Positions 1,336 through 55,796 of a DNA stretch of 64,000 nucleotides are shown piece after piece. Position 1 is the stretch's first letter. Each line of letters begins with the position of its first letter. The notes beneath the pieces were generated by a model, which saw nothing but the letters and a program-made list of their open reading frames with translations, had not been told where the DNA came from and did not search any database. The DNA comes from a bacterium (lineage in GTDB: Bacteria; SAR324; NAC60-12). The DNA is taken from contig CBDBHR010000030.1 of the NCBI GenBank assembly GCA_965205865.1, positions 515,031 through 579,030 on the forward strand, read 5' to 3'. The position numbers and the translations under genes were made by a program.

Positions 1336-1918
1336 GATGTAGATTCCCAAATCCAGGGAGAAGTACGTCTTGAATCTTGTGCCCGCGAAAGCGGGTATCA
1401 GATCATCACAAAATATGACGATCTAATGGAGGGCGGAAAAACCTTTATGAGCAAGGACTGATGGAAATTCAACTCTCAAATCCTTTTTTTTAAAAAAACC
1501 TCTCAAAGAGTGGGGGGAAACTCAATCAAAATATTCAATTGCAGGATTTAGGTGTTAAGTAACTGTTACTCGCTGACTGACAAAAGTATCAGTTTTTGTC
1601 AATGAGTGTTCTCCCTTCGGTCGAGCGGTTCGCCGATGCGATGAATAGTAAAATGTGCTCAACGGGGAGTTTTTTGACCCCTGCTGAGGTTAAATAACCT
1701 GAGTTCGAGATAATAATTTAATAAATTCAATATGTTATGGAATCTTCATATCTTAGAGAAACCTTGTAATTATTGAGGGGATTTTATATATTCAACTCTT
1801 GAAAATAATCCTTGTTTGGTTCAGGCTGTGCCGGGTTAGTTGTTAGCCAAAAACGGTAGGTTCCGGTCTGAGTTCGAGCGCATGCGGTGGCGACCCCCCG
1901 CTGCCCCATAAGATGGTT

Positions 1919-3384: not shown

Positions 3385-4905
3385 ATGCCCAAAACCCGAG
3401 GATTGATCGCTGCCGGCCATATGGCCACTGCAGAAGCTGCCGCTTCCATTTTGCGAGAAGGTGGCAACGCCTTTGACGCAGCCGTCGCCGCATTCCTCAC
3501 CAGTTTTATTTCAGAACCATGCATGAACTCGGCGGGAGGTGGCGCATTCATGGTGGCCTGTGACAAAAATGGAACTGCCTCGGTTTACGATTTTTTCGTG
3601 CAAACTCCCCAACACAAACGTCCTCGGGAGGAAATTCAGTTTTTTCCCATAGAAATCGACTATGGCGCCACCAGGGAAATATTCCATGTAGGGATGGGTT
3701 CTGCCGGCGTGCCGGGTTCCATTGCGGGAATTTTCCAAATGCATGCGGATCGGTGCAGTCTTCCCATCAGAGTCCTGGTAGAACCGGCAATCCAGCTGGC
3801 GCGCAGTGGAGTGGAAGTGGACAGTTTCCAATACCATTCATTTCGCCTTCTCGAACCCATCCTTGCCTTGAATAAAAAAGTCTCCCAGGTCTTTTGGCGG
3901 AATGGACGGCTCATCCCGGAAGGGGAGTTGATGTTTATGCCTGAATTGGCGGACAGTCTTGATTACATGGCTCGCGAAGGAGCCGATGCATTCTATAAAG
4001 GAGAAATTGCCAGAAAACTGATCCTGCTCAATGAGGGAAGAGGCGGCCATCTCACTGCGAAAGATTTGGAAGATTACCAGGTCCGCATCCATCCACCATT
4101 GCAATTTCGCTACCGGGACCGGAAAGTGATCACCAATCCCCTCCCCAGTTTGGGCGGGAGCCTGATGGCTCTGATGTTGGCAATGCTGGAAGCGAAAGGT
4201 CCTGTCGATTATCCTCCACTGAGCCGAAACCACGTGGAACGGTTGATGGAAGTCTGTTACGATACCAGTCGGATTCCCAGAACACCGCAAAGACTTGTCG
4301 AATACCTGACACAGTGGTATCCCGGACAACGCTTTACGGCGTCCCATCACAGTGTCAAAATTGGAGGAACCAGCCACCTGAGTATCCTGGATGAAGATGG
4401 CAATGCCGTTGCCATGTCGGTCTCGAATGGAGAAAGCTGCGGTCATTTTATCCCCAAAACCGGAATCCTGATGAACAACATGCTGGGAGAATCCGCCCTC
4501 TTACCCAATGGTCTTCACTCCTGGGAGGAAGACGTGCGTCTCGGCTCCATGATGTCACCAACCATCGTGCTGGATAAAGAAAACAATGCGGAATTGGTGC
4601 TGGGAAGTGGAGGGGCCGGCCGTATTCCCTTCATGATTGCGCAGGTGATCCATTACGTTGTCGATCATGGAATGGAGATCGAAGAGGCCATCAACGCCCC
4701 ACGGCTTCATTGCTATGACGGGCTCTGCAACCTGGAACCCGGTTTGCCCAGCGATATCCAAATGCCCTCCTTTCTGCGCGAATTTGTTTTCTGGGAGGAA
4801 CAGTCTCTTTTTTTTGGCGGCGTGCACGGGATCCGCTGCCGGAACGGCAGGATGCGGGCAGAAGGAGATCAACGCCGCAGCGGGGTCATGCTTCGGGTTT
4901 ATTGA
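3385..4905 (+). CDS. ggt: Gamma-glutamyltranspeptidase family protein.
   Basis: GGT-like sequence throughout (GHMATAEAAASILREGGNAFDAAVAA; T..GGT.HLSILDEDGNAVAMSVSNG). GGAG RBS before ATG 3385. Confidence 0.75.
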   Translation: MPKTRGLIAAGHMATAEAAASILREGGNAFDAAVAAFLTSFISEPCMNSAGGGAFMVACDKNGTASVYDFFVQTPQHKRPREEIQFFPIEIDYGATREIFHVGMGSAGVPGSIAGIFQMHADRCSLPIRVLVEPAIQLARSGVEVDSFQYHSFRLLEPILALNKKVSQVFWRNGRLIPEGELMFMPELADSLDYMAREGADAFYKGEIARKLILLNEGRGGHLTAKDLEDYQVRIHPPLQFRYRDRKVITNPLPSLGGSLMALMLAMLEAKGPVDYPPLSRNHVERLMEVCYDTSRIPRTPQRLVEYLTQWYPGQRFTASHHSVKIGGTSHLSILDEDGNAVAMSVSNGESCGHFIPKTGILMNNMLGESALLPNGLHSWEEDVRLGSMMSPTIVLDKENNAELVLGSGGAGRIPFMIAQVIHYVVDHGMEIEEAINAPRLHCYDGLCNLEPGLPSDIQMPSFLREFVFWEEQSLFFGGVHGIRCRNGRMRAEGDQRRSGVMLRVY

Positions 4906-5272
4906 CCTCACTCTTCTATCAACCTTGTATTGTCTTGCAATGGTTCTGACATTTTTTTTAATTCTTAATAAATTGAAAATAAATCATTTCAAATACTTAG
5001 AAAAAGTATCTGAATTATTTACAACTTTGAGTCAGTTTCTCAGTTTGAAATAATTCAAGCAATCCCGATGACCGTGTCATGCATGACTTGATCAGGCATC
5101 CAGGAGTTCTTTGGCAGGCCCCCTGGATTCCTGGGCAAGCCAGGAATGACATTGATTCTGTGTACAGAACAAAGAATACTTCATAGGTATTTCAAAACTG
5201 TTAGAAGTATTGGTCTTGGAGATTTGTTAAAAAAGAAAAATTCAATCATCATATACCAATTTTTCATTCTGA

Positions 5273-6460: not shown

Positions 6461-6497
6461 CCCCCCTCCCCTAGCCCCTCCCTCCAGGGGAGGGGGA
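6461..6497. repeat. G/C-rich palindromic dispersed element (REP-like), family CCCCTCCCC...GGGGAGGGG.
   Basis: cccccctcccctagcccctccctccaggggaggggga. Nested inverted repeats; related copies at 16473, 33581, 40544, 41391 and 48383-48694. Confidence 0.8.
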
Positions 6498-10070: not shown

Positions 10071-10548
10071 ACCGTTATTTCAGTGAGTGGAGTTCTGATG
10101 GAATAAAATGCGTAATGCCAATGATCTGATTCGAAGAGGAGGGCAGTTGTTTGCTTTGAAAGCGTAACATATTTCGCGAGGATGACATATAAATCAGGAT
10201 GCTCATATTATTGAAGATTTATGTCGAACTCAGATTAACATAAGATATATCCTGTTCCAATTAAAAAAACAATTCCTAATCCCACATCGTCCCTGCACCG
10301 ACAATTCGAGTGATCGACGCATGCCACTCTCCTCGTATTTTCTTCACGATTCTCCGGCATACTTGACAGAAGAGGCCACAAGGATTACTCTGAAAAGGAT
10401 CTTCGCATCCACCGATACAACAACATTGTAATCCCCGGATTCCCGCTTTCACGGGGATGATATTTTTGTTGTGAACTCGTTTGAGTAAACACAACGTTTT
10501 AAATGCAACTTCGTATAGAGTGCCATTACAAGCAGTAGATAGGACAAA

Positions 10549-16472: not shown

Positions 16473-16505
16473 CCCCTCCCCTTGAGGGAGGGGCTAGGGG
16501 AGGGG
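16473..16505. repeat. REP-like G/C palindromic element.
   Basis: cccctccccttgagggaggggctaggggagggg in the frdA-rlmH intergenic region. Confidence 0.8.
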
Positions 16506-26491: not shown

Positions 26492-26578
26492 GCCGAAGTG
26501 GCGGAATTGGTAGACGCGCTAGATTCAGGTTCTAGTGTCCGCGAGGACGTGGGTGTTCGAGTCACCTCTTCGGCACCA
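26492..26578 (+). tRNA. tRNA-Leu (anticodon CAG), long variable arm.
   Basis: GCCGAAGTGGCGGAATTGGTAGAC...CTAGATTCAGGTTCTAG anticodon loop (CAG). Variable arm GTCCGCGAGGACG. T-arm GGGTGTTCGAGTCACC. Ends CGGCACCA. Confidence 0.85.
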
Positions 26579-26607
26579 TTTCCCTCTGCGGACGCTTTTT
26601 TCTTAAC

Positions 26608-26680
26608 GGCCAGATAGCTCAGACGGTAGAGCAGAGGACTGAAAATCCTCGTGTCCCTGGTTCGATTCCTGGTCTGGCCA
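26608..26680 (+). tRNA. tRNA-Phe (anticodon GAA).
   Basis: GGCCAGATAGCTCAGACGGTAGAGCAGAGGACTGAAAATCCTC...GGTTCGATTCCTGGTCTGGCCA. Near-identical architecture to canonical bacterial tRNA-Phe. Confidence 0.85.
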
Positions 26681-26702
26681 CCTTCTCCCTCGAGACGGAT
26701 TC

Positions 26703-31283: not shown

Positions 31284-31650
31284 AAGGAGCCCGAAACATA
31301 GTCGCCGGTGATCGAATCACGGGAGGAAAGTCCGGGCAACGCAGGGCAGGATGCTGGCTAACAGCCAGGCAGCGCGAGCTGACGGAAAGTGCAACAGAAA
31401 ATAAACCGCCGATGGCTTTTTTGAGCACAGGCAAGGGTGAAAAGGCAGGGTAAGAGCCTACCGCGGCTCTGGTGACAGAGTCGGCAGTGTAAACCCCATC
31501 CGTTGCAAGTCCAAATAGAACCGCGTCGAAAGATGGCCCGTCCAGCGGTTGGGTAGGACGCTCGAGGTTCCTGGCAACAGGGATCCCAGATAAATGACTA
31601 TGGTCTGCCGCAAGGCAGGAACAGAACCCGGCTTATTGCGGGCTCCGCTC
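31284..31650 (+). ncRNA. rnpB: RNase P RNA (bacterial type A).
   Basis: P4 GGGAGGAAAGTCCGGGC; ACAGAAAATAAACCGCC; GGTAAGAGCCTACC; GCAAGTCCAAATAG; 3' ACAGAACCCGGCTTA. P1 pairing ggagcccg (31286-93) with cgggctcc (31639-46). Confidence 0.75.
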
Positions 31651-33408: not shown

Positions 33409-34398
33409 TCAAAACAAATCGGGTTTGAGCGTATGGTTTTGCAATGCATGCATGGTACTCGAAGAAATCTCAGACAAAAAGCGAGACACGGTGGCCACTT
33501 CGTTGGCAGGAAGCGCATATCGGGATATGAATTCAACGGAAAAATTGCCGGCAAGCGGAGCATGCTCTTCGGATGAAAGAATCCCCCTCCCCTTGAGGGA
33601 GGGGTCGGGGGTGAGGTGTCGCGGGGAGGGGTAATACGGCATTTGGGCCATGATTTGTCGGCAAGCCGCTTCATTGGGATCGAGTATCACCGCCTGGCGT
33701 CCCAACTCTTGAAAGGCTTTTTCAAATAATTTTGCCTGGTATCCATAATGGGTACATCCCAAAAAAGCATAAAGGGGTTTGAAAGGTCGGGACGTTTGCG
33801 CCAGGGCAATTTTGATGAAGTTCGTGATGCTCTGATAGACCTGTTTTCCTTCAGGGTCATTGGAGATCATGGTGGCCACTCCCGGAAGGGCTCGGGAAAT
33901 CATGCGATCGCCGGCAATGCCGGCTGCTGACAGCTTTGTGGCGTAAATCGATTCCGCAATGGTGGTCTCGGCAGCAAAAATGAATACGCCGGATGCGGGA
34001 TTGGCGGAGAGGTGGCGGACAATCTGGCAGACGCCGGCGGAAATCATACCTGCCGGCGAAAGGGCAAAGCGACGGCTTTGCTTGTCCTGGAAAAAAGCCG
34101 TCTCCGAGAGCAAGGCGGACAGAGTATGGCAGGCGATAAAAATGAAATCAGGCTGGTACCAGCGCTCGATCCCCGCCAGGACTTTGTCGAAGAAAAAAAT
34201 TTTCTGCAACCGCGATTCCATTTGATTGAATCCCCAATCATTTTCGGGAACGGCATTCACGTATTTGAATTCGACGGAAGCGGAGCGCCACCTGTTTGGG
34301 CGCTTGGCGGAACCAGACGCTCCGCCGACGCGGCGAGGGGTCAGTAAGGCGCAGATGGACAGGCCACCCAGTCCGGAATCGACAATCGCAATTTTCAT
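33409..34398 (-). CDS. murI: Glutamate racemase. The ORF runs about 60 codons past the expected MurI C-terminus, through a REP-like element.
   Basis: MKIAIVDSGLGGLS N-terminus. The conserved CTHYP-type motif (LGCTHYGY) is present. The C-terminal tail (PSPRHLTPDPSLKGRGIL...) is encoded by repeat DNA. Confidence 0.8.
   Translation of the reverse strand: MKIAIVDSGLGGLSICALLTPRRVGGASGSAKRPNRWRSASVEFKYVNAVPENDWGFNQMESRLQKIFFFDKVLAGIERWYQPDFIFIACHTLSALLSETAFFQDKQSRRFALSPAGMISAGVCQIVRHLSANPASGVFIFAAETTIAESIYATKLSAAGIAGDRMISRALPGVATMISNDPEGKQVYQSITNFIKIALAQTSRPFKPLYAFLGCTHYGYQAKLFEKAFQELGRQAVILDPNEAACRQIMAQMPYYPSPRHLTPDPSLKGRGILSSEEHAPLAGNFSVEFISRYALPANEVATVSRFLSEISSSTMHALQNHTLKPDLF
33581..33631. 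repeat. REP-like G/C palindromic element (degenerate, compound), lying in-frame inside the murI 3' extension.
   Basis: tccccctccccttgagggaggggtcgggggtgaggtgtcgcggggagggg. Confidence 0.75.
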
Positions 34399-38633: not shown

Positions 38634-41075
38634 ATGATAAAAGAAAATAAAAAAATGCTCGTCAACGTCGATGATGACGAAACGCGTATTGCCGCGGTCA
38701 CCGGGAATACCCTGGACAATCTCCACGTCGAACAGACGGGAACCAATCGAATGATTGGCAACATCTATCGTGGCAAGGTGGTCAAAGTGCAGAGTTCCTT
38801 CCAGGCCGCTTTTGTGGAATACGGGGCGGAGCGTCACGGGTTTCTGGCGTTTTCGGACGTCAACTTTCAGGTCATCAAAGCTGCCGATAATCCGCTTAGT
38901 AAATCTGCCATTGAAAAATTTCTCAAGCCCGGACAATGGGTCATGGTACAAGTGACCCGCAATCAAATAGGACGCAAAGGGGCGAGTCTGACGACCCATA
39001 TCAGCCTGCCGGGACGTTTTCTGGTCTTCATGCCCAACAGCAACAAGGGAGGCGTTTCCAAGAAAATCGAGGATTTGGAAACCCGGGCGCGCTTGAAGCA
39101 TTTGCTCGAGGGACTGTGTGGCGAGAAAGATTCGGCAATCATCCGCACTGCCGGAGTGAACCGGGGCGCATCCGAACTGAAGCGGGATTTCATGGCCCTG
39201 CGCCGCAAATGGAACGAAATCCTGAGAAATTATGAAAGCGCCGCCGGACCCGGACTTTTGTATGAGGAAGAGGACGTGGTGGTGCGCACCTTGAGAGACT
39301 ATTTTATCGACGACATTGCTGAAATCTGGATTGATCACCCGGAAACCTTTCAACGAGCCCGGGAGTTTTTCAAGGCCAATATTCCCAACCGCCAGAAGCG
39401 CCTGCAATTTTATTTGGGAGAACGTTCCCTGTTTTCGGATTATGGCATTGAAAACCAAATCGAACAGCTCAGCAGTAACCATGTGCCACTTCCTTCAGGA
39501 GGGAGCCTGGTGATCGATCCCACCGAGGCCTTGGTGGCGATCGACGTCAATTCAGGACGTTACAACCAGAGCCATGATATCGAAGAGACGGCACTGCGCA
39601 CCAATCAGGAGGCGGCCGAGGAAGTCGCCCGTCAGCTTCGTTTGCGGAATCTGGGGGGCTTGATCGTGATTGATTTCGTCGATATGACTGGCGAGGAAAA
39701 CCGCAATGCCGTTGTCAGAACGATGGAAGAGCGCTTGCAGGACGACAAAGCCAAGTGGACCCTGGGGAGTATTTCACAATTCGGTTTGCTCGAAATGAGC
39801 CGGCAGCGCATCGCCAATGCGCTTTCCCAGGAAATGAAAACCACCTGTCCCACTTGTGGCGGGATGGGGGAAGTTCTTTCGGTTTCCTCCCTGGCCAACG
39901 CGGTTTTGCGGAAAATCCGGGATCTGGCTGCAACTGCGGTGCGCGGGAGTGGCGAGATCATTGAAATCCATAGCCTCGTTCCGGTGGAATTATCCAATCA
40001 TTTGTTCAATAAGAAACGGCAACAGTTGGATGAACTCGAAGTTGAATTCGGCATCAAGATAGTGCTGACGGCGGATCTTTCCGCAGATCCCGGAAAATTG
40101 CCGGATTTCGAGGTGCTCAACAGAACGGCCGGTACCTCGGAAACGGTCGGTGGAAGCGGGAAAAAATCATTGCGGGAAGAAGAGAAGACTCCCAAGGACA
40201 AGGAAGAGAAAGAAAAATCAGGAAAAAACCGGCGTAAAAAGGAAAAACCGGCGGCTCTTTCACAGCCATCCGAAAGCATGGAAGAAGCAAAAACCGCAGT
40301 CGACCCGGCGGAAGAACCGGTGGATTCCAATAAGGATTTACCTGGCGAAGTGGAAAAGCCACCAAAACCCGTCCCCTTGTATAGCAGCGCCCACCAGCCT
40401 GGGCCCGCAGAGCAGGCAGGCGTCGCGCCACCGGCGCTTCCCTCCGCAAAAGCGAATCCCCCTGATGAGAATGGCAAAGACGTTCCTCCGTCCACCGTGC
40501 TTTTCAGCAGTTCCCATCGTGATTCACGGCAAAACCGGATCAGTCCCCCTCCCCCGGCCCCTCCCTCCAGGGGAGGGGAATTGATCGATCGCGCTCCGGA
40601 GGTTGCGGAACCGGTGGATCATATCAGCGCGGCCGGGGTTGCCGTTTCCGAGCCGGTGAACGAGCCCGCCGCCGTGGAGGTTCCGCCACCAGTTCCCGTC
40701 GCCGGGGAAAAGGCGCCGGCCAAGCCACGCGGCTCCACGAGGCGAAAGCCGACTCAAAAAAAAGAAACAGCCGAGCCGGCCACGCGGAGTGAAAAAAAAC
40801 CGAAGCCAAAACCCCGCAATGCTCCCAAAAAAGCGGAAGATACTGCGGAAAAGAAGGACGAAAGCGCAGCCGTGACTGCAAAGGCGGGCAAGAAAACTGC
40901 TGCAGAAACCGTGAAGAGCAAATCGAAAAAAACGACGACTCCTTCAAAAGCAGAACCCACTGCCACTGAAAAGGCGGCCAAAAAAGCTCAGCCGACCACC
41001 GCTAAAAAGGCAGCCGGGACGAAAACCGCAAAGTCGGGCAAAGCAGTCCGCCAAAGCGGGAAAACAACGGAGTGA
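38634..41075 (+). CDS. rne: Ribonuclease E (RNase E/G family) with a Lys/Ala/Pro/Glu-rich disordered C-terminal scaffold region.
   Basis: S1 domain (GNIYRGKVVKVQSSFQAAFVEYGAERHGFL); DNase I-like catalytic region; Zn-link CPTCGGMG; low-complexity C-terminus. Contains an in-frame REP-like insert at 40544-40579. Confidence 0.85.
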   Translation: MIKENKKMLVNVDDDETRIAAVTGNTLDNLHVEQTGTNRMIGNIYRGKVVKVQSSFQAAFVEYGAERHGFLAFSDVNFQVIKAADNPLSKSAIEKFLKPGQWVMVQVTRNQIGRKGASLTTHISLPGRFLVFMPNSNKGGVSKKIEDLETRARLKHLLEGLCGEKDSAIIRTAGVNRGASELKRDFMALRRKWNEILRNYESAAGPGLLYEEEDVVVRTLRDYFIDDIAEIWIDHPETFQRAREFFKANIPNRQKRLQFYLGERSLFSDYGIENQIEQLSSNHVPLPSGGSLVIDPTEALVAIDVNSGRYNQSHDIEETALRTNQEAAEEVARQLRLRNLGGLIVIDFVDMTGEENRNAVVRTMEERLQDDKAKWTLGSISQFGLLEMSRQRIANALSQEMKTTCPTCGGMGEVLSVSSLANAVLRKIRDLAATAVRGSGEIIEIHSLVPVELSNHLFNKKRQQLDELEVEFGIKIVLTADLSADPGKLPDFEVLNRTAGTSETVGGSGKKSLREEEKTPKDKEEKEKSGKNRRKKEKPAALSQPSESMEEAKTAVDPAEEPVDSNKDLPGEVEKPPKPVPLYSSAHQPGPAEQAGVAPPALPSAKANPPDENGKDVPPSTVLFSSSHRDSRQNRISPPPPAPPSRGGELIDRAPEVAEPVDHISAAGVAVSEPVNEPAAVEVPPPVPVAGEKAPAKPRGSTRRKPTQKKETAEPATRSEKKPKPKPRNAPKKAEDTAEKKDESAAVTAKAGKKTAAETVKSKSKKTTTPSKAEPTATEKAAKKAQPTTAKKAAGTKTAKSGKAVRQSGKTTE
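40544..40579. repeat. REP-like G/C palindromic element inside the rne coding sequence (in-frame).
   Basis: tccccctcccccggcccctccctccaggggagggga, translated SPPPPAPPSRGGE. Confidence 0.8.
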
Positions 41076-41157: not shown

Positions 41158-42699
41158 ATGTCGACCCGCAAAACATCCGCACCGCAACAGCAAAGTAAGG
41201 GGGAAACCCGGGCGGGGGTCCGCTCTTCCAATCCCCTCGAGGCGCGTTCCGCGCTTTATGGTCTGTTGCCTTCGATCAGGGAAGTCGATCATTATCTGAA
41301 AGCGCGCGATCTGCACTTTGGTAAACCGGTGCGCGCCCATGTCAACGGGGTTCTGGACGGATTGCGGGAAGAAATTTCAGCTTCAATCAATCCCCCTCCC
41401 CTGGAGGGAGGGGCCAGGGGAGGGGGATTGGCGGAGGGTGGAGAGCCGGCGGTCCCCCCTTTGCCGTTTTCCAGCAAAGAGCAAATCCTGGAGCATCTGG
41501 CTGCGATCGTCAGGCAGCGGGGTCAGATCAGTATTCGTCGCGTGATCAATGCGACCGGCGTGGTCATTCATACCAATCTGGGCCGCGCTCCTATTTCGCG
41601 GAAATTGATCGATTCGATTCTGCCGCTGCTCTCTTCTTATGCCACCGTCGAGTACGATTTGGAATCCGGCAAACGCGGCACCCGTGGCGAGGGAGTGAGG
41701 AATCACCTGCGCTTTCTATCGGGAGCGGAGGACGCGCTGGTGGTCAACAACAATGCCGCGGCGCTTTATTTGATGCTGGTGGCCCTGGCTTACGGAAAGG
41801 AAGTGATTGTTTCCCGCGGGGAACTCATGGAAATAGGTGGATCCTTCCGCGTTCCGGACATCATGCGGGCTGCCGGCGTTCGACTGGTGGAAGTGGGAAC
41901 GACCAACCGCACGCGTCTTTCCGATTATGAAAAAGCCATCAACGGCAATACGGCCGCCTTGCTGAAAGTTCATCCTTCCAATTACGAGATGCGGGGATTT
42001 GTCGAGGAGACGCCGGTTGCCCAAATTTCCCGGTTGGCGCGCGAGCATGAACTGTTCGCGTTCCATGATCTGGGAAGCGGCAATTTCTATCAATTCGAAC
42101 AGCCGGCCTTGCGGGGTATCTCCACGGTGCAGTGGGAAGTACGCAGTGGAGTCGACCTGCTGACCTTCAGTGGAGATAAATTACTGGGCAGTACCCAGGC
42201 AGGCATCGTGGTTGGTCGTAAAAATCTGATCCGCCGACTTGCCCGCCATCCCCTGTTCCGCGTGCTGCGTTTGGACAAGATCACCATGGCTTTGCTGGAA
42301 GTCCATCTGGCAGCCTATTTTCAAATGGAGACACTGGCCAGCGCCATCCCCACCATCGGACTATTGGAACAATCGAGCGACGCCATCCGGCAAAAGGCGG
42401 AGACCGTGCTGCGCTCCCTCAGCATTCCTCCTCGATGCGGCTGGTCCTGCAAGTTGGCAGCGGCAGCTTCCCTGAGCGGAGGTGGGGCTTTGCCGGAAAT
42501 TTATCTCGATTCCTATTGCCTGGTGCTGGAACACGTCACTTTGCCTGCTGAAAAAATCCAGCAGTTTTTCCGACAACAGGAGATACCGGTCATTGCAAGA
42601 GTGCGGAACAACCAGGTCTGGCTGGATTTCCGCACGGTTTTTCCCGAGGAATTTCCCCTGATCACTCGCGTTCTTCATCAACTGTTCGCTGCTCAATGA
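41158..42699 (+). CDS. selA: L-seryl-tRNA(Sec) selenium transferase.
   Basis: SelA motifs INATGVVIHTNLGRAP, VVNNNAAAL, VSRGELMEIGGSFR, FSGDKLLG. Contains an in-frame REP-like insert (NPPPLEGGARGGGLAEGG) in the N-terminal linker. Confidence 0.85.
   Translation: MSTRKTSAPQQQSKGETRAGVRSSNPLEARSALYGLLPSIREVDHYLKARDLHFGKPVRAHVNGVLDGLREEISASINPPPLEGGARGGGLAEGGEPAVPPLPFSSKEQILEHLAAIVRQRGQISIRRVINATGVVIHTNLGRAPISRKLIDSILPLLSSYATVEYDLESGKRGTRGEGVRNHLRFLSGAEDALVVNNNAAALYLMLVALAYGKEVIVSRGELMEIGGSFRVPDIMRAAGVRLVEVGTTNRTRLSDYEKAINGNTAALLKVHPSNYEMRGFVEETPVAQISRLAREHELFAFHDLGSGNFYQFEQPALRGISTVQWEVRSGVDLLTFSGDKLLGSTQAGIVVGRKNLIRRLARHPLFRVLRLDKITMALLEVHLAAYFQMETLASAIPTIGLLEQSSDAIRQKAETVLRSLSIPPRCGWSCKLAAAASLSGGGALPEIYLDSYCLVLEHVTLPAEKIQQFFRQQEIPVIARVRNNQVWLDFRTVFPEEFPLITRVLHQLFAAQ
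41391..41427. repeat. REP-like G/C palindromic element inside the selA coding sequence (in-frame).
   Basis: tccccctcccctggagggaggggccaggggaggggga; identical to the core unit of the 48.4-kb tandem array. Confidence 0.85.
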
Positions 42700-47628: not shown

Positions 47629-47730
47629 CAAACAGTGGGCTTCCCGATTCACCTCTTCCTGCCGGGCTGTTTGCTCCTGTTTACCGGGAATATCCTGCTC
47701 CCGGTTGCAATTCCGGCGCTCATTCTTTTG

Positions 47731-47847
47731 TTGATTCCGCATCATTCATCCTTGCCTGGTAGGGGGAACCACATTGTTACGATGCCGGTGCCTGTTCATT
47801 TCTTGATTCCGCATCATTCATCCTTCCCTGGTAGGGGGGAACCACAT
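47731..47847. repeat. Two direct copies of a 44-45-bp repeat (47731-47774 and 47803-47847) separated by 28 bp.
   Basis: ttgattccgcatcattcatccttgcctggtagggggaaccacat and ttgattccgcatcattcatccttccctggtaggggggaaccacat. Confidence 0.85.
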
Positions 47848-47993
47848 TTTTGTTTGCAACTATTCAGGTGCGAGTTTGCTGGGTTTGCGGGTATTTTCCT
47901 TAGAAAAAGCGCACTAAATCATCCACTTTTGAGGTATTTTGACGCAATTTAGAGGTTCTGTCGACCTCTATCCCAGTGTTTTCGCACCTCAAT

Positions 47994-48209
47994 AGTTAGT
48001 GCTTGGCCGAAAAATACTCAAATTGCTGGTATTAAATGACATTTCTTCAATTTCACAGGATGAAGATTTGTTTGATACAGTGTTCAGATGGCCAGAATCA
48101 GCAAAAAATGGGATTTTTGATAAGTTTTCCCAAAATCTTCGTTTCTTGAAAATAGGTGAATACCATTAAATATCATGTAGTTATCTAATTTTCAGCCAAG
48201 CACTAATTA
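47994..48209. repeat. About 15-bp imperfect inverted repeats bracketing roughly 185 bp of AT-rich non-coding DNA (MITE-like or att-like structure).
   Basis: tagttagtgcttggc (47994-48008) and gccaagcactaatta (48195-48209). Additional palindrome tagaggttctgtcgacctcta at 47950-47970. Confidence 0.3.
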
Positions 48210-48382
48210 CTTTTGTTTTAATAGAGGTAATGGTATTTGGGGTCATATTGCTCGGTGTCTTCTCGACCGCAGAGAGAGATCTTCAAGGGTCCTCCGGAAA
48301 CCGGGATTTCAATGTTTCTCTCTCCTCAGGTTTCGCTGGCTTGGACCAAATAGTCAATTCATACGAAGTTGCGCATATAAAG

Positions 48383-48694
48383 AATCCCCCTCCCTTGGAG
48401 GGAGGGGCCAGCACGGGAAAATCCCCCTCCCCTGGAGGGAGGGGCCAGGGGAGGGGGACAGCAGCCCAAAGAATCCCCCTCCACGCCAAGAATCCCCCTC
48501 CACGCCAAGAATCCCCCTCCACGCCAAGAATCCCCCTCCCTTGAAGGGAGGGGCCAGCACGGGAAAATCCCCCTCCCCTGGAGGGAGGGGCCAGGGGAGG
48601 GGGACAGCAGCCCAAAGAATCCCCCTCCACGCCAAGAATCCCCCTCCACGCCAAGAATCCCCCTCCCCTGGAGGGAGGGGCCAGGGGAGGGGGC
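48383..48694. repeat. Nested tandem array of REP-like palindromic elements.
   Basis: Higher-order unit: two palindromic cores (89 bp in total) plus 3 copies of aatccccctccacgccaag, then the same 89 bp plus 2 such copies, then one terminal palindrome. The two 89-bp blocks differ by a single substitution. Confidence 0.9.
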
Positions 48695-48823
48695 GCGAAG
48701 CTGGAAGATCCCCCCCGACGTCAAAAAATTCACTACTCGTCGGGTTGTCTTGATTATCCTAAAGATTTCAGTATTACTCATTGAATCACAACTATTTTTT
48801 ATTATTTTCCCTATTCCGGAGCC

Positions 48824-50872
48824 ATGAGATTTCAACTGTATTTTCGTCTTGTACTGCTGCTTTTTTGTTATTTTCTGGGAGCATGTTTCGTCTTTTTTCT
48901 TTTTCGTCTCAACTTTTTGATTCGTTTTGGAGATTTACATGAAATTTCAGTTCATTATAAATGGGACCTGTTCGAGTCTTTTTGGATGGGCGCCCGTTTC
49001 GACGCCAAGGTGCTGGCCATCTCACTGGCGCCTCTCTTTGTTTTATGCGCCTTGAGTCTGCCTTTTCCCAAGGTGAGTCGGAATCTCATATTCTTTTGCT
49101 GGCCCTGGCTTGTTTTACAGTCTTTGCTGCTTTATTTCTTGCTTTTTATAGACCAGCTTTATTACGGTTATTTTCAAAACCATATCGATATTCGCATTTT
49201 TGGTTTTATGGAAGACGATACCCGGGCCTTGCTGGACACTTTCTGGCAGGAATACCCTGTATTGCCTGTTCTTTCCCTTTTGTTATTGCTGTCTGTTCTG
49301 ACGGGCTGGCTGCTTTGGAAATTGCATGCGCGCCTGCGAAACAGAAAAGCGCCCGCCTGTTTTTCGGGGTCGGCAGCCCGCATCTCTTTTGTGATTTTTA
49401 CTTTGCTTTTCGTCAGTTTGGCGGCGCGCGGTTCGCTTGGCGTCTTTCCGCTCGCAAACCAGGAACGTGGCATCTCGGATCACCAGTTTCTGAATTTATT
49501 GGCGTATAACGGCATTTTTAGTTTTTATGATGCCTTCCAGCACCGGATAGAGAATCGATTTTCCACGGACATGGCACCTGTTTTAGCCAGGTATGAACAC
49601 AAAGACCTCCGGGAAGCGCTGCGCAACTATTACCAGCTTGCCAGCCCTCAGGCTCCTTTTCGAAGGTATATGTTCCGCAAGTCGGAGACCGCCTTCAGTG
49701 CTCCGGATAGGAAGTACCACGTCATTCTGATCATCATGGAAAGCTGGAGCGGATATTATTTTCGTTGGCATAACCCGAGCTTTCACCTGTTGGGTCGTCT
49801 GGAGAAGCATTGGGATTCGTTGCTCCATTTCCCATACTTTTTTTCTGCGGAAAATGGCACTATTCTCGGTCTCGAAAGCCTTCTCATAAGAAATTCGGGG
49901 TCAATTTTATCACAGACAAAGTATGCTTCGCACAGCTTCGACACTGCCATCACGCGTCCATTCCTGAAGGCCGGTTATGAAACGCACTTTATCAGCAGTG
50001 GTAAACTGGCATGGCGTAATCTCGATTTATTTTTGCCAATGCAAGGTTTTGAGAAGCTCAGTGGCCAGGTAAAATTAGAATCCTTGCGCAAGGATGAGAA
50101 TGCGCAAAATAACGTCTGGGGTGTTTTTGACGGGTATATGTTTGATTTTATGCTGGAAACCCTGCGCCAGGCTGAGAAACCTCAATTTATGGTAGCCCTG
50201 AGCATTACTCACCATCCGCCTTATAGAACGCCGGACGAGTACCAGGCTTCAGCGCTGCAAATCCCTCCCGCCCTGAGCGCAAAGCTCAAGACTGATAAGG
50301 ACACGGCTCGACGCGCCTTCCTTTCCTTTCAATACGCCAATGACGCTTTGGGTTATTTCCTGGAGCAGATCGAGCAAAGCAACTTGGCGAAAGAGACGCT
50401 GGTCGTCATGACGGGCGACCACAATACCTGGGGTCTGTTGGATTACGATCAGGAGAATCTGCATTGGAAATATGCGGTCCCCCTTCTTTTTTACCTTCCT
50501 CCGGAATTAAAAGAGAAGGTCTCTTTTGCGGACCACCAGCGCTTTGGTTCCCACGACGATATCTTTCCCACTCTGATGGCTCTGCTCTTTCCCGAAGAGG
50601 AATTTCTGCAAACAGGTTACAATCTTCTTGCTCCCCAAAGGCCGCCAAGTTTTGCAGTGAATGCCGCCGGATGGGCTCTGGACCCGCAAGGAGCCGTTTC
50701 CCTGACGGGTCAGCCTTTGTTTTATAAATGGAGCAGTCCCCAACGCCAGAAGCTGGTCAAAAGCGCTCCCCGGCCTGAACTCATGGAATTGAGAAAGAGG
50801 GCGCAGGCTCGTAAGGTAATTATGAATTATGCGTTGCGCGCCGATATTTCAGGAGAACAGGCAGGAAAATAA
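48824..50872 (+). CDS. LTA-synthase/sulfatase-family membrane protein (phosphoglycerol- or phosphoethanolamine-transferase-like; alkaline-phosphatase superfamily).
   Basis: Five N-terminal TM helices followed by a sulfatase domain (VILIIMESWSG..; TGDHN). 682 aa. Confidence 0.7.
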   Translation: MRFQLYFRLVLLLFCYFLGACFVFFLFRLNFLIRFGDLHEISVHYKWDLFESFWMGARFDAKVLAISLAPLFVLCALSLPFPKVSRNLIFFCWPWLVLQSLLLYFLLFIDQLYYGYFQNHIDIRIFGFMEDDTRALLDTFWQEYPVLPVLSLLLLLSVLTGWLLWKLHARLRNRKAPACFSGSAARISFVIFTLLFVSLAARGSLGVFPLANQERGISDHQFLNLLAYNGIFSFYDAFQHRIENRFSTDMAPVLARYEHKDLREALRNYYQLASPQAPFRRYMFRKSETAFSAPDRKYHVILIIMESWSGYYFRWHNPSFHLLGRLEKHWDSLLHFPYFFSAENGTILGLESLLIRNSGSILSQTKYASHSFDTAITRPFLKAGYETHFISSGKLAWRNLDLFLPMQGFEKLSGQVKLESLRKDENAQNNVWGVFDGYMFDFMLETLRQAEKPQFMVALSITHHPPYRTPDEYQASALQIPPALSAKLKTDKDTARRAFLSFQYANDALGYFLEQIEQSNLAKETLVVMTGDHNTWGLLDYDQENLHWKYAVPLLFYLPPELKEKVSFADHQRFGSHDDIFPTLMALLFPEEEFLQTGYNLLAPQRPPSFAVNAAGWALDPQGAVSLTGQPLFYKWSSPQRQKLVKSAPRPELMELRKRAQARKVIMNYALRADISGEQAGK

Positions 50873-50961
50873 ATGAGGCTGGCACGGAAGGGGTTGAGGT
50901 GAATAAGGTCTCGGAAGGAGACCATGACTCAGTCCTATGTCTTTTCTAACAATTAAATTCA

Positions 50962-50996
50962 AATATGCAAGCCTGACCCCTTTTTTGACCCCTTTT
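50962..50996. repeat. Left inverted repeat (IR-L) bracketing the three-gene cassette.
   Basis: aatatgcaagcctgacccc is a perfect 19-bp reverse complement of 53331-53349. Followed by a duplicated tgacccc(t)ttt motif. Confidence 0.85.
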
Positions 50997-51278
50997 CTCC
51001 AAGAGAAGAAAACTGAAAGATGAAAATATCCCACTTTTACCTTGATTAGTCTTCCAAAATACGAAAAAATCATGAAAAATTGTCCTTTACTCCCAGATTT
51101 CCAGTTGTTATCGTTTTCAGTGATTTTCTTATGTTGATGATTTTCAGATATTGTCTAGATGTCATCATCCTCAATGATTTTTATTTTCCTAAAATGTCAC
51201 CTCTTCCGGGTCTTGTAGTATCCGGAGGTTAGGGAACATACGGAGCTTGAAACACAAGAAATTCGGAGGAAAAACCCC

Positions 51279-52049
51279 ATGCGTCCGCATCGCCGTTACA
51301 AAAACCCACCCATAGAAGAGGCGCTTTGTGAATTTCGCTTCAAACCGGGACGGGACTGGGACCTCTTCATTCCAGGTAAACTCCATTCCAAAATCGATGA
51401 GGAATATGGTGGTAAGCCACGGGAACAAAAAGTTGTCGAGTTGGGATTGGAAGCCCAGGGAGGCAAGCCTCCCAATCTGAGATATGGTGAAGCGTTGTCA
51501 ATTATCCAACTGGTCACGAAGGATGGCAAAAGGATAGTTGGGGTTGGACCCGACATACTCAACGTTCACATGCTGCGTCCCTATCAAAATCCTCTTGATC
51601 CTGAACGCAGTGGATGGGACGAGTTCAAACCCCGGATTTCAGAAGCGCTCGATGCATACTGGAAGGTGGCTAAGCCAATTGGTGTATGTAGGATTGGTAT
51701 TCGGTACATAAACAAAATCCTCATACCACAGAAAACGGTAGAGGTCGAGGAATATCTCAAGTGTGCTTTGCCGGTTGTAAGAGGATTGCCAGATCGCCGG
51801 AAGCACTTTGTGAGCCGTGTTGATTATGACTATGGAGACGGTATGCGTCTGGGTTTGTCTCAGCGATCGATCAAGGCCCCTCCGGATCACATGGGTTTTC
51901 TGCTTGATCTTGACGTCATTTGGGAGAACTCCAAATCGCTTGCGCAGGACAAAGCATTGGAAAAAGTAGGTGACTTGCGCACTCGTGAAAGAGAAGCATT
52001 CGAAACTGTCATCACGGATAAAGCCAGGGAACTCTTCGATGCCGATTGA
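51279..52049 (+). CDS. Uncharacterized protein, TIGR04255-family-like, first gene of the three-gene operon.
   Basis: 256 aa; GGAGG RBS 8 nt upstream. N-terminal Y..PPIEEALCEFRF pattern recalled as typical of TIGR04255 proteins (from memory, not searched). Confidence 0.55.
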   Translation: MRPHRRYKNPPIEEALCEFRFKPGRDWDLFIPGKLHSKIDEEYGGKPREQKVVELGLEAQGGKPPNLRYGEALSIIQLVTKDGKRIVGVGPDILNVHMLRPYQNPLDPERSGWDEFKPRISEALDAYWKVAKPIGVCRIGIRYINKILIPQKTVEVEEYLKCALPVVRGLPDRRKHFVSRVDYDYGDGMRLGLSQRSIKAPPDHMGFLLDLDVIWENSKSLAQDKALEKVGDLRTREREAFETVITDKARELFDAD

Positions 52050-52761
52050 AAAATACGTACCTGCGCGTTCCAGAACCTCGACCTTTGATTCGGACACATT
52101 CTTTAAGATGGACGAATCGGGAGTGGCCTATGCCTCCCCGCATTGGCTCACCGAGGGAAAGGAATCGTTTGCGGCTTCTTTAGACGCCGAGACACCGCAA
52201 AAAGCGATGGCGGATCTGTTCGAACTATTCCCTGAGCAAACGACAGTGGTCCCGGATAGTACTTTATGGGTTGCGCTTATTTTTCCTGTACTCGTGGATG
52301 CAGCCTGCTTCGAACCGGCAGTCTCGCAACAGGCGCCTGTTGAAGGTCGAGAACAAAAACTGCTTGCGGCCAAACTGTGGACGTCCTTTGAAGCCGACAC
52401 CCTTGAAGACGGAATGGAACATCCAGCCGAGCAGATTATTGGAAAGGCGTTGCGATCCGAGGAAGAACTGCGCGTTCTTGAATGGTTCAGGGCTTTTGCT
52501 TTGGATGCTGAACGGCCGAGCTTTGCGGCATCGGTTCTGCGTTGCCTGGGACGTCAAATGCATCCGGGGACGGATTCATGGCGTGTTGAACTCGTGCGTG
52601 ACGCGCTGGCCATGGATGATGTGGAGATCAGGGACGCAGCCGCACAAGCAGCTGAATCGTGGGGTGGCCGGGATCTGATCGAGGTTCTAACGTCTCATCG
52701 TGAGCCGGAACCTTGGCTTCGAGACTACATTCGGGACATCATTGATGACCTGAGGGAGTAG
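52039..52761 (+). CDS. Uncharacterized acidic protein (possible helical-repeat fold), second gene of the three-gene operon.
   Basis: ATG overlaps the upstream stop by 11 nt (translational coupling). 240 aa; no recognizable catalytic motif. Confidence 0.5.
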   Translation: MPIEKYVPARSRTSTFDSDTFFKMDESGVAYASPHWLTEGKESFAASLDAETPQKAMADLFELFPEQTTVVPDSTLWVALIFPVLVDAACFEPAVSQQAPVEGREQKLLAAKLWTSFEADTLEDGMEHPAEQIIGKALRSEEELRVLEWFRAFALDAERPSFAASVLRCLGRQMHPGTDSWRVELVRDALAMDDVEIRDAAAQAAESWGGRDLIEVLTSHREPEPWLRDYIRDIIDDLRE

Positions 52762-52764
52762 GGG

Positions 52765-53280
52765 ATGTTCCTGGCACGCAAGATTACACGCGCCAAGTGG
52801 CGCCCCAAGGAGGAATTGTCGGTGGAAGAAATTCCGGCCGATGCGGTGACTGTTGATCTGAGGACACAGGAAAACTCGTTGTCTTTCTGGCAGTGTAGCA
52901 TCGGGGAAGAGGCCGAAGTCGAAGAGGTGGCGCTGGCGATAGCCGCCGCAGGTGAACGTATCGATAAGCTCGACATCGTTTGGTTTTCCGATGACGAGCT
53001 GCGGGCTGACAGCCAACAGTGGAAAAAAACCGACGGACGAACACCCGTTGCAGAGTTGGTCAGGCGACATGTCGATGTGTATCGTCTCGACTACGTGCGC
53101 CTCGGAAAAGTCGCTTCTCGTATCGCTACTGCAATAAAAGAGAGCCGATTCCGGCGGCTATCGAAGAAGCGTGTTACAGATCTCCTTGCGACAGCAGTCG
53201 AACAAGAACGTGTCAAACTGGACGACCTTGATAGTCGTGTCCATACAGAGGTGCGTGAGTCGCTCGGGGTAGAGAGATGA
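52765..53280 (+). CDS. Uncharacterized protein, third gene of the three-gene operon.
   Basis: ATG 4 nt after the upstream stop, with a GGGAG RBS. 171 aa; no recognizable motif. Confidence 0.5.
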   Translation: MFLARKITRAKWRPKEELSVEEIPADAVTVDLRTQENSLSFWQCSIGEEAEVEEVALAIAAAGERIDKLDIVWFSDDELRADSQQWKKTDGRTPVAELVRRHVDVYRLDYVRLGKVASRIATAIKESRFRRLSKKRVTDLLATAVEQERVKLDDLDSRVHTEVRESLGVER

Positions 53281-53308
53281 TCCATGCACTGCTAATGGTT
53301 GTACGAAT

Positions 53309-53350
53309 TGAAATGGGGTCAGGCTGAAATGGGGTCAGGCTTGCATATTG
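53309..53350. repeat. Right inverted repeat (IR-R) of the cassette, with internal tandem duplication of gaaatggggtcaggct.
   Basis: ggggtcaggcttgcatatt (53331-53349) is a perfect reverse complement of IR-L. The 16-mer is duplicated at 53309-53324 and 53325-53340. Confidence 0.85.
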
Positions 53351-53532
53351 GTATTTGGGAATTGTCTCGAGTGCAGGAGTTCTTCAGCCAACCTTGGATC
53401 GACTCTCGTCTGGGTTTCCAAGGCAATGCGTTGTCGGCTCAACGAGGAAAGGTCTCTTTGATAATACTGAGCCTCCTCCTCTAAGAGCCCGCCCTTTTCC
53501 GTATAAAAGAGCGTCATCCTTCCTCATATATA

Positions 53533-53556
53533 AATATGCAAGCATGACCACATTTT
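53533..53556. repeat. Third, diverged copy of the IR sequence in IR-L orientation, just downstream of the wecA-like gene.
   Basis: aatatgcaagcatgaccacatttt vs IR-L aatatgcaagcctgacccctttt. Confidence 0.6.
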
Positions 53557-53572
53557 CGTCCGGGGTTTTTTT

Positions 53573-55238: not shown

Positions 55239-55796
55239 ATGTCTGAAGTCGAAATGCAGTACAGCAGCACAGAAAACTGGTACGCGCTCCGTATCCGTTC
55301 CAGGTTCGACCAATTGTCGGAAAGGGCGCTGAAGAACAAACGATTCGAGGTTTTCAATCCAACCTACCACGAATGGAGTCGACGCAAGGATCGTAAAAAA
55401 CTATTGAGAAAATCCATATTCAAGGAATACATGTTTTTACGAACCACCCTGACTGCGGAGATTCACCTGGAAGTATTGAAAACCTATGGAGTAATGCTAC
55501 TCTTGCAAAACCGTACCGGTCCGGTCCCGATCCCCGACAGTCAAATCGCCAACATACGCCTGCTCGAGCAGCACGTGGGACGCTGTTTCCACGCTCCGGA
55601 ATATGCGCAGGGGGATTGGGTCCGTATCCGTGATGGGGTTATGGAAGGTTTGGTTGGTCAAATTGATTGGATGAAAAAAAATCTATTACGCATCACAGTC
55701 AACGGCATTGCCGGATCGGTTGCCATCGAAGTCAATCCGCATCAGGTGGAACTGCTGGAAAAGGACCCGGTCTACAAGGCAGTGGTCAGTCACTAG
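55239..55796 (+). CDS. rfaH: NusG-paralog transcription antiterminator (RfaH/UpxY-like), leading the polysaccharide gene cluster.
   Basis: NusG N-terminal-domain signature (WYALRIRSRFDQ) and C-terminal KOW-like region (GDWVRIRDGVMEGLVGQI). Confidence 0.6.
   Translation: MSEVEMQYSSTENWYALRIRSRFDQLSERALKNKRFEVFNPTYHEWSRRKDRKKLLRKSIFKEYMFLRTTLTAEIHLEVLKTYGVMLLLQNRTGPVPIPDSQIANIRLLEQHVGRCFHAPEYAQGDWVRIRDGVMEGLVGQIDWMKKNLLRITVNGIAGSVAIEVNPHQVELLEKDPVYKAVVSH

Follow-up and report, generated by a model that had tools for sequence, protein, structure and literature searches.

The 1.1-kb intergenic region considered here separates two divergently oriented genes, one SprT-like and the other encoding a sulfatase-family protein, and contains a nested tandem array of palindromic units that ends 111-130 nt upstream of the ATG of the latter. 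All coordinates refer to the window, that is, the whole 64-kb stretch of DNA that was analysed. The sulfatase-family protein is LTA-synthase/phosphoglycerol-transferase-like, with a match to LtaS in PDB (E = 6e-5) and weak OpgB/LtaS matches, none an equivalog, in NCBIfam; its relationship to OpgB/MdoB and LtaS is only distant. A polysaccharide/O-antigen-type cluster (GT4, a NusG paralogue, Wzz, Wzy_C, a flippase and GT1) adjoins the gene, and a strain-variable accessory island is located on its 3' side, 2 kb from the array and beyond the conserved gene. The host is an uncultured lineage that is tentatively assigned as SAR324-like; the nearest proteins to the SelA encoded in the window come from SAR324-cluster bacteria (52-67% identity). 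Among about 40 ORFs of the 64-kb window searched against Pfam, there is no Y1/RAYT transposase, the transposase present, at 41-1234, being of the DDE type. The array and its surroundings comprise the following features.

48211-48376: conserved left flank, 166 bp, present in every strain that reaches it; further left, the sequence is strain-variable (alignment, BLAST map)
48380-48418 (+): unit 1, a hairpin-only derivative, AAGAATCCCCCTCCC-TTGGA-GGGAGGGG followed by CCAGCACGGGA, with the third G-block missing (parse of the sequence)
48418-48457 (+): unit 2, a full triplex motif (TM), CCCCTCCC-CTGGA-GGGAGGGG-CCA-GGGGAGGG, which is both a perfect 8-triad class II motif and a G-quadruplex (G4) motif
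through 48468 (+): linker GACAGCAGCCCA, closing the unit 2 block
48469-48525 (+): three identical 19-nt satellites, AAGAATCCCCCTCCACGCC, copying the C-rich left arm of the TM
48526-48564 (+): unit 3, hairpin-only, a copy of unit 1 apart from a single substitution (loop TTGAA)
48564-48614 (+): unit 4, full TM and linker, exactly as unit 2
48615-48652 (+): two more identical 19-nt satellites
48653-48693 (+): unit 5, the terminal full TM
48694-48716 (+): array tail CGCGAAGCTGGAAGATCCCCCCC, a degenerate unit start that grades into the conserved right flank
48713-48823 (+): conserved right flank, 111 bp, 92-95% identical across strains (alignment)
48714-48744: hairpin in the right flank, CCCGACG-N17-CGTCGGG
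48782-48787 and 48804-48809: sigma-70-like site in the right flank, TTGAAT and TATTTT separated by 16 nt, with GGAG before the ATG
48824-50872 (+): sulfatase-family gene, encoding a 682-aa membrane protein (Pfam Sulfatase, PF00884, E = 5.6e-31)

Anatomy of the array and of its unit

The array (48380-48694) is a 146-bp higher-order repeat present in two copies that are 99% identical, and consists of five palindromic units and five identical 19-mers. Tandem Repeats Finder detects the period of 146 at 48380-48666 (2.0 copies, 99% matches) and the 19-mer AAGAATCCCCCTCCACGCC at 48469-48539 (3.7 copies) and 48615-48666 (2.7 copies); together with the parse, this yields the nested order of units given in the original prediction, and the near-identity of the 146-bp copies agrees with its claim of recent expansion, the duplication being very recent. 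The second 89-bp block differs from the first by a single substitution, G to A in the first loop. The two palindromic cores that had been described in each 89-bp block are both present but differ in kind: the first is a simple hairpin of 8-9 bp without the third, G-rich block, and the second is a palindrome with a 14-bp stem and the asymmetric 9-nt centre AGGGAGGGG. Where the third block is missing from the first unit of each block, the junction reads …GGGAGGGGCCAG|CACGGGAAAA…, and the linkers of two other strains (L125 and L126), which contain …GGGGAGGGGGCAGCACGGGAAGATCC…, suggest that the hairpin-only unit arose through a 12-nt deletion between CAG repeats. The satellites, which are 17-19 nt long, repeat the C-rich left arm of the unit in tandem (AAGAATCCCCCTCCCC...); the variant most common in the relatives, AAGAATCCCCCTCCCCTCC, matches the initial 19 nt of the unit except at its final two bases. 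The 19-mers have no computed secondary structure of their own. The array does not show the organization of a CRISPR array, with identical repeats and unique spacers of similar length, given that its units abut and spacers are absent.

The full unit can be written as AAGAAT-CCCCCTCCCC-TGG-AGGGAGGGG-CCA-GGGGAGGGGG (as an oligonucleotide, the triplex-motif unit is AATCCCCCTCCCCTGGAGGGAGGGGCCAGGGGAGGGGG), and its outer arms constitute an inverted repeat of 14 bp without mismatches. The fold computed for the full unit as single-stranded DNA has a stem of 14 bp and a loop of 9 nt (-18.2 kcal/mol, z = -3.9), and that of unit 1 has a 9-bp stem (-10.6 kcal/mol). These folds were computed with ViennaRNA and accordingly are hairpins, triplexes being outside its model. 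The 9-nt centre itself copies the G-arm, so that the unit can also be read as a C-block, a 5-nt loop, a complementary G-block, a 3-nt loop and a mirror-image G-block, or CCCCTCCC-N5-GGGAGGGG-N3-GGGGAGGG. This is the layout of a class II purine motif under the ITxF definition (three consecutive blocks on one strand, stems of at least 8 nt and loops of 1-6 nt; Holder et al. 2015). A scan with the corresponding grammar (a pyrimidine block followed by its reverse complement and then by its complement, with 8-nt stems and loops of 1-6 nt) identified seven perfect 8-triad class II motifs in the 64-kb window, with loops of 5 and 3 nt, three of them within the array, compared to none in 200 composition-preserving shuffles of the window. 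Every full unit also contains the G4 motif GGGAGGGGCCAGGGGAGGGGG (four tracts of at least 3 G, loops of 1-7 nt), and these units account for seven of the eight G4 motifs in the 64-kb window. A single-stranded unit can thus be predicted to adopt three folds: the 14-bp hairpin, a shorter hairpin with the third G-block added as a purine-motif triplex, and a four-tract G-quadruplex. The hairpin outcompetes the G4 in the computation when the C-arm is included; beyond this computed hairpin, the structures that the unit actually forms are predictions from its layout.

Turnover of the array between strains

Relatives were collected from the protein cluster of the sulfatase, which added eight syntenic loci, drawn from five or more ENA samples. 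The array is found at the same site in all nine strains, in nine different versions, a repeat-number polymorphism of the kind that characterizes phase-variable loci. Compared to the window, the arrays align at 48-67%, whereas the flanks are 92-97% identical (3-8% divergent) and the gene is 96-98% identical in the six strains aligned. In all eight further loci, the array directly follows the left anchor …GAAGTT[GA]CGC[AT]T[AT][TC]AAAG and stops at the right anchor …AAGATCCCCCCCGACGTC…. Eight arrays are complete, with lengths of 336, 285, 366, 476, 219, 452, 429 and 457 bp (range 219-476 bp, excluding the ninth array, that of L142, which is partial). Each holds between 2 and 4 full units in addition to some 5-16 satellites, 17-19 nt in length, and the arrays differ in the number of units, the sequence of the 19-mers and even the orientation of units. 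Only 11 of the 39 satellite variants are common to more than one strain, the variant AAGAATCCCCCTCCACGCC being private to the window strain. Some of the one-base differences in satellite length (17, 18 or 19 nt) may reflect homopolymer errors in these long-read assemblies of 4-25x coverage; such errors cannot account for the differences in the number and sequence of units.

The higher-order repeat is particular to each strain, a signature of unequal exchange or slippage with homogenization. Between L004 and L141, whose arrays are collinear, the difference is exactly one 19-nt unit in addition to point changes. In L124 and L126, one unit has an inverted centre (C-C-G vs C-G-G), L125 shows a flipped copy that is degenerate, and overlapping matches on both strands occur in L142; these flips may be explained by hairpin-mediated template switching or by recombination between arms. 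In most of the strains compared, the array closes with a terminal TM followed by ...AAGATCCCCCCCGACGTC; the exception is L125, in which the last recognizable unit is the degenerate flipped copy, followed by two satellites. Further indels among the strains are located within 600 bp of the array, and the raised variability between strains that is typical of the surroundings of triplex motifs is seen here as well, at one locus and without a control set of intergenic regions.

The left flank shows a handful of differences between strains, about 4% as judged by eye from the alignment. Special constraint on these 166 bp was considered and rejected, this divergence being at the level of coding sequence. 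The right flank contains the sole conserved sigma-70-like site near the gene, positioned 15-42 nt ahead of the ATG and following the array at a distance of about 88 nt. In the relatives, it reads TTGAAA-16-TATTTT and was flagged in L124 and L001 (9/12); in the window, the same site scores 8/12, below flagging, a weak match to the consensus in an uncultured lineage. The promoter of the sulfatase-family gene most likely lies within the conserved 111 bp downstream of the array. A further sigma-70-like site, at 48052-48081, was rejected as the promoter of the gene because it lies inside a 355-bp segment that is absent from most strains. In L001, a GIY-YIG element of roughly 790 bp separates the array from the sigma-70-like site, and the gene is intact. 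The orthologue in L002, 70% identical, is located 46 bp after gatB, without an array or TM.

Both sides of the gene vary between strains: upstream, there is a 72-bp repeat, the 355-bp indel and MITE-like insertions, and downstream, different TA/defence-type genes. The original prediction, made from the letters alone, identified correctly both the membrane-anchored Pfam Sulfatase/LTA-synthase-family gene and the variable number of the repeats, now apparent from nine strains with only 3-8% flank divergence. Its placement of the array in the promoter region of the gene is not supported, the only sigma-70-like match near the gene being on the far side of the array, and its suggestion of a recombination hotspot at the border of the accessory region survives in part: the neighbourhood is rearrangement-prone, but the island is on the 3' side of the gene, away from the array.

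Searches of Rfam 15 at the gathering threshold detected RNase P and two tRNAs in the whole window and nothing else. Within 47700-48850, no family reached its gathering score, the best being anti-hemB with 32.9 bits vs 49.5 needed, a generic hairpin match; at E <= 5, the array region gave generic sub-threshold hairpins (anti-hemB, miRNAs) and no CsrB/Rsm-type sponge. The possibility that the array encodes a sponge or another structured RNA was dropped on account of these sub-threshold scores, the loop sequences that are unconserved across genomes, and the statement that purine-motif triplexes do not form in RNA (PMC4666352).

Dispersal of the element and relationship to known repeats

The core CCCCTCCC-N5-GGGAGGGG has 10 matches in the 64-kb window, compared to 0.02 expected, so the array is beyond chance. 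Outside the array, the element occurs at least five more times in the window:

6464-6495 (-): solitary TM where an ADH-like gene and mfd converge, between their 3' ends
16473-16504 (+): solitary TM in the interval separating rlmH from a divergent sdhA/frdA-like gene
33580-33632 (+): degenerate TM with an interrupted third block, in the 3' part of a racemase-like minus-strand ORF (putative coding)
40547-40578 (-): solitary TM within the C-terminal tail of the RNase E/G ORF (aa 637-650)
41393-41424 (+): solitary TM in frame within the SelA coding sequence, translated as NPPPLEGGARGGG, in a variable linker (alignment)

As judged by the asymmetric centre, these copies are of mixed orientation. The palindrome, which had been treated as local in the original prediction, is a dispersed element of the intrastrand-triplex/G4 kind and not a locus-specific regulatory device. 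Essential genes accommodate copies in their reading frame (SelA, probably RNase E/G).

The core is also widespread elsewhere. A search for exact matches to CCCCTCCC-N5-GGGAGGGG-N3-GGGGAGGGG (26 specified bases), with each species represented by a single genome, found at least 119 stretches in at least 11 phylum-level groups. The matches listed include Alphaproteobacteria (among them isolates of Novosphingobium, Sphingobium and Inquilinus) and Gammaproteobacteria; Desulfobacterota, Bdellovibrionota, Omnitrophota, Planctomycetota and Cyanobacteria; as well as Bacteroidota (Prevotella jejuni, Neolewinella), Chloroflexota, Nitrospirota, Spirochaetota and Clostridia. In these other genomes, the core is embedded in differing, genome-specific longer repeats or inverted pairs, and the loops vary. 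An identical 26-base core in at least 11 phylum-level groups calls for an explanation, be it structural convergence or a shared host factor. In viruses, the core is rare, with 13 contigs among 2.9 million, and thus shows no sign of being a phage-borne element. A scan of JGI metagenomes with a two-satellite pattern returned one unrelated tandem repeat (L127) and no additional arrays.

The closest known counterparts of the element are the TMECO repeats, formerly BoxC or PIT elements (Hoyne and Maher 2000/2002; Holder et al. 2015, PMC4666352), with which it shares the succession of a pyrimidine stem, a 3-6-nt loop, a complementary purine stem, a 3-nt loop and a mirror purine stem. TMECO are defined by the G/C-rich class II motif 5'-CCCTCNCCC N3-6 GGGNGAGGG N3 GGGNGAGGG, number 23 in E. 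coli K-12 and 3610 in 262 proteobacterial genomes, form triplexes in vitro, and have no strand or gene-class bias (PMC4666352). The element in the window resembles them further in its length of about 35-40 nt, its many near-identical dispersed copies, the absence of strand bias and of a link to a gene class, and the unusual variability of its locus between strains; rearrangement within about 500 nt to 3 kb of TMECO loci is significantly more frequent than around control intergenic sites or plain hairpins (PMC4666352). It differs in the stem, which is CCCCTCCC/GGGAGGGG as opposed to CCCTCNCCC/GGGNGAGGG; in the host, a SAR324-like uncultured lineage rather than Enterobacteria; in the direct tandem array with arm-derived 17-19-nt satellites, the E. 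coli copies being solitary or in inverted pairs; and in the copies in frame in SelA and in the tail of the RNase E/G ORF, whereas TMECO are reported to be always intergenic. Given the shared architecture, the different stem and the lack of any match to the strict TMECO pattern in the 64-kb window, the element represents a new sequence family of a known kind and is not a member of TMECO.

A dispersed equivalent with the blocks in mirrored order (G-G-C) has been described in Methanomicrobiaceae, where hairpin, antiparallel triplex and G4 are in equilibrium in vitro (Chashchina et al. 2021, PMC8044849); the bacterial versions have the C-tract at the 5' end, as in the window (PMC8044849). Common to both are the dispersal, the four G-tracts (loops of 1, 3-5 and 1 nt) and the complementary C3TC3-type tract; unlike the repeat in the window, the archaeal one carries its C-tract at the 3' end, and its copies are reported to be without exception intergenic and solitary. 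The element also shares with REP, BIME and REPIN sequences the character of a short, G/C-rich, palindromic dispersed repeat that is able to cluster into composite arrays. In contrast to BIMEs, which have alternating orientation and defined linkers, the units here are mostly direct with occasional flips, and in contrast to the element described here, REPs are species-specific, tied to RAYT and devoid of a third mirror-repeat block; no RAYT was seen in the window. Identity with the Pseudomonas REP/REPIN sequences, considered in view of the literature on the GGGAGGGG palindrome, was rejected, those REPs being unrelated in sequence. Like bacterial VNTR and contingency loci, the array has a strain-variable number of tandem units beside a cell-envelope gene; unlike contingency loci, with units of 1-9 nt within an ORF or a promoter spacer, it consists of nested 19-146-bp repeats at a distance of over 100 nt from the downstream ATG. 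In Neisseria gonorrhoeae, the pilE G4 consists of one motif, accompanied by an sRNA promoter of its own and by silent donor cassettes. With that system, the locus shares a G4-capable sequence upstream of a surface-structure locus in a recombination-active region; it differs in that no sRNA promoter and no donor or silent cassettes were identified at the array.

The kind of element is therefore already known, and on present evidence no new regulatory mechanism is revealed. What is new is the family of stems, found in a SAR324-like host, the arrangement of units in a direct, nested array together with satellites that derive from an arm, the complete turnover of the array between strains that are 96-98% identical in the adjacent gene, and the tolerance of copies within coding sequences. 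Intrastrand-triplex/G4 repeats of the BoxC/PIT/TMECO type now extend to an uncultured SAR324-like lineage, where they build a nested minisatellite that is hypervariable between strains and whose satellites come from a single arm of the element.

Probable origin and possible roles of the array

Probably, the array is a locally amplified, unstable cluster of a dispersed structure-prone repeat of the BoxC/PIT/TMECO type rather than a dedicated switch of the sulfatase-family gene. A dispersed triplex/G4/hairpin element would have been amplified in tandem along with copies of one of its arms; the array would then gain, lose and rearrange units by slipped-strand mispairing, by unequal recombination between units and by hairpin-mediated template switching, the last of which would also flip units, and the structures would favour all three processes during replication. 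As unstable, structure-prone DNA in a tolerant 1.1-kb divergent intergenic region, the array would owe its hypervariability to these processes as a by-product, and it would have no regulatory role. The same layout and the more frequent rearrangement of TMECO loci between E. coli strains (PMC4666352) argue for such a reading. Retention at the exact site in all nine strains counts against a mere bystander and could mean that the array is selected rather than tolerated. It would be explained, despite the complete turnover of content, if the array were a selected 'diversity generator', in which G4/triplex units provoke replication stalls and recombination, keep the surroundings of the gene, the island and the polysaccharide cluster in flux, and perhaps tune expression by the number of units; we consider this very unlikely.

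An unlikely alternative to the unstable cluster is copy-number-dependent control of the sulfatase-family gene, in the manner of a phase switch or a rheostat, through altered distance or phasing of upstream elements, a block to RNA polymerase, or a structured 5' leader; strains with different arrays would then make different amounts of a cell-envelope-modifying enzyme. The array does vary between strains, is kept 111 nt from the ATG in eight of the nine, and lies near a polysaccharide/O-antigen-type cluster, a typical setting of surface variation. G4 or triplex DNA in a promoter or 5'UTR is reported to be capable of altering expression in E. coli (Holder and Hartig 2014, as cited in PMC4666352), which also favours such control. 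However, the best promoter-like site is downstream of the array, 790 bp intervene between the array and the intact gene in L001, the next orthologue (L002) has no array, and the element occurs also at unrelated loci, some of them within coding regions. In E. coli, PIT/BoxC lacked promoter and terminator activity, according to the account of the work of Hoyne and Maher given in PMC4666352. Furthermore, the changes in the length of the array amount to tens or hundreds of bp and occur over 100 nt ahead of the start codon, which is not the classical phase-variable geometry: with the promoter assigned at the level of consensus, the units alter neither a reading frame nor the -35/-10 spacing. The compared strains differ genome-wide and thus are not phase variants of one clone, and these sequence comparisons neither support nor refute phase variation of the gene by the array.

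A REP/BIME-like housekeeping role, as an insulator of transcription or a terminator that separates the SprT-like gene from the divergent sulfatase gene, an mRNA stabilizer, or a platform for nucleoid proteins or gyrase, possibly spread by RAYT, appears quite improbable. The repeat is indeed short, G/C-rich, palindromic and dispersed, the minus strand of unit 1 scores as terminator-like (hairpin plus ATTCTTTAT), and the core occurs elsewhere in longer genome-specific repeats and inverted pairs, as in REPINs; against this, the units do not alternate as in BIMEs, Y1/RAYT transposases are missing among the scanned ORFs of the 64-kb window, several copies lie within ORFs, which is atypical of REPs, and the identity of the core across at least 11 phylum-level groups is unlike species-specific REP-RAYT pairs. 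Less probable still is a programmed initiator of recombination comparable to the pilE G4, with G4/triplex breaks or stalls diversifying the intergenic region and the accessory island. The variability on both sides of the gene and the rearrangement-prone TM loci of E. coli speak for such an initiator, but the immediate 166-bp and 111-bp flanks are conserved and collinear, the island is 2 kb off on the far side of a conserved gene, neither donor or silent cassettes nor an associated sRNA promoter were identified, and the association may simply reflect a permissive region. Scarcely credible, finally, is an assembly artefact or a coding repeat, spurious or real: gene callers did place Pro/Gly-rich ORFs over the array in L124, L125, L126 and L141, repeats are error-prone in assemblies, and L141 has 4x coverage, but nine independent assemblies from at least five samples agree on the junctions of an array, long reads exceed the 219-476 bp of the arrays, and a conserved reading frame is excluded by the period of 19 nt and by array lengths indivisible by 3, so that the coding hypothesis is rejected.

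The nine arrays form a natural allele series, with gain and loss of units, 12-nt deletions and unit flips, for the study of non-B DNA and repeat instability in bacteria, and the locus would make a high-resolution strain marker for this lineage in metagenomes.

Triplex-motif copies within protein-coding genes

Copies of the triplex-motif element, a dispersed G/C-rich repeat composed of a C-block, a G-block and a mirrored G-block separated by loops, also occur within genes of the window:

41393-41424, in frame within the SelA gene (41158-42699)
40547-40578, within the RNase E/G gene (38634-41075), in the disordered tail
33580-33632, degenerate copy within the 3' portion of a racemase-like ORF

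The SelA copy is translated into the peptide NPPPLEGGARGGG, part of a variable linker that joins the N-terminal domain to the core, and the stretch that it encodes is missing from SelA homologues of 464-478 aa (alignment A1). The in-frame copies in protein-coding genes of the window recall the Rickettsia palindromic elements. In contrast, TMECO, the triplex-motif repeat (BoxC/PIT) of Escherichia coli, is reported to be always intergenic (Holder et al. 2015, PMC4666352), whereas the element in the window is found within coding genes as well.

The triplex-motif core in other genomes

Among the matches listed for the 26-base core in other genomes (at least 119 stretches, one genome per species), the core itself is identical, yet the longer repeats that surround it differ from genome to genome; the stems of the core are constant and the loops variable. 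Examples of such longer repeats are the conserved flanks of the core in Syntrophobacteraceae MFD12011, Desulfococcaceae CA_2019_TPIn_113 and Prevotella jejuni; in Acetobacteraceae SMAG_U5148 the core occurs as inverted pairs whose members lie about 64 bp apart. This pattern may have arisen because different genomes converged on one structure, or it may reflect a host factor that they share.

Variation around the sulfatase gene in related strains

A second variable tandem repeat, with a unit of about 72 bp, spans the start codon of the minus-strand SprT-like gene along with its 5' region. Its copies in the window and in the syntenic loci of related strains (L-numbers, here and below) are as follows:

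window 47704-47855, two copies
L124 2162-2512, about four to five copies
L003 1794-2286, about four to five copies
L001, one copy

Within the SprT-sulfatase intergenic region, only the window and L001 have a 355-bp segment (window 47856-48210), which is missing or replaced in the other strains; it holds the sole sigma-70-like site flagged by the window scan (48052-48081).

In L001, an element of about 790 bp (4165-4957) is inserted upstream of the sulfatase gene, 55 nt from its ATG. The element encodes a 96-aa GIY-YIG protein and has terminal inverted repeats of about 9 bp (ATGTTACGT), with TTACTCA as the apparent target duplication. Its non-coding part resembles a self-complementary, MITE-like repeat of about 265 bp that is dispersed on both sides of the sulfatase gene in other strains:

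L004 1963-2173, 5047-5270 and 7189-7456, element-related repeat copies
window 1696-1771 and 10172-10237, element-related fragments

The interval that separates the sulfatase gene from the GT4 (WecA-like) gene (window 50873-53572) is a strain-specific island, as seen when its contents are compared between the window and L001, L003, L004, L124-L126 and L141:

window, TIGR04255-family protein and two unknown ORFs
L003, BrnT/CopG and AbiEii
L004 and L141, HipA_C
L124 and L142, DUF8196

Other genes and RNAs of the window

A NusG-domain paralogue (55239-55796) is encoded immediately upstream of the Wzz, Wzy_C, flippase and glycosyltransferase genes, and could be a specialised, RfaH-like antiterminator of the polysaccharide operon. 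The remaining features are:

31286-31650, class A RNase P RNA (319 bits)
26492-26682, tRNA-Leu(CAG) and tRNA-Phe(GAA)
41-1234, DDE (IS4-type) transposase, at the left end of the window
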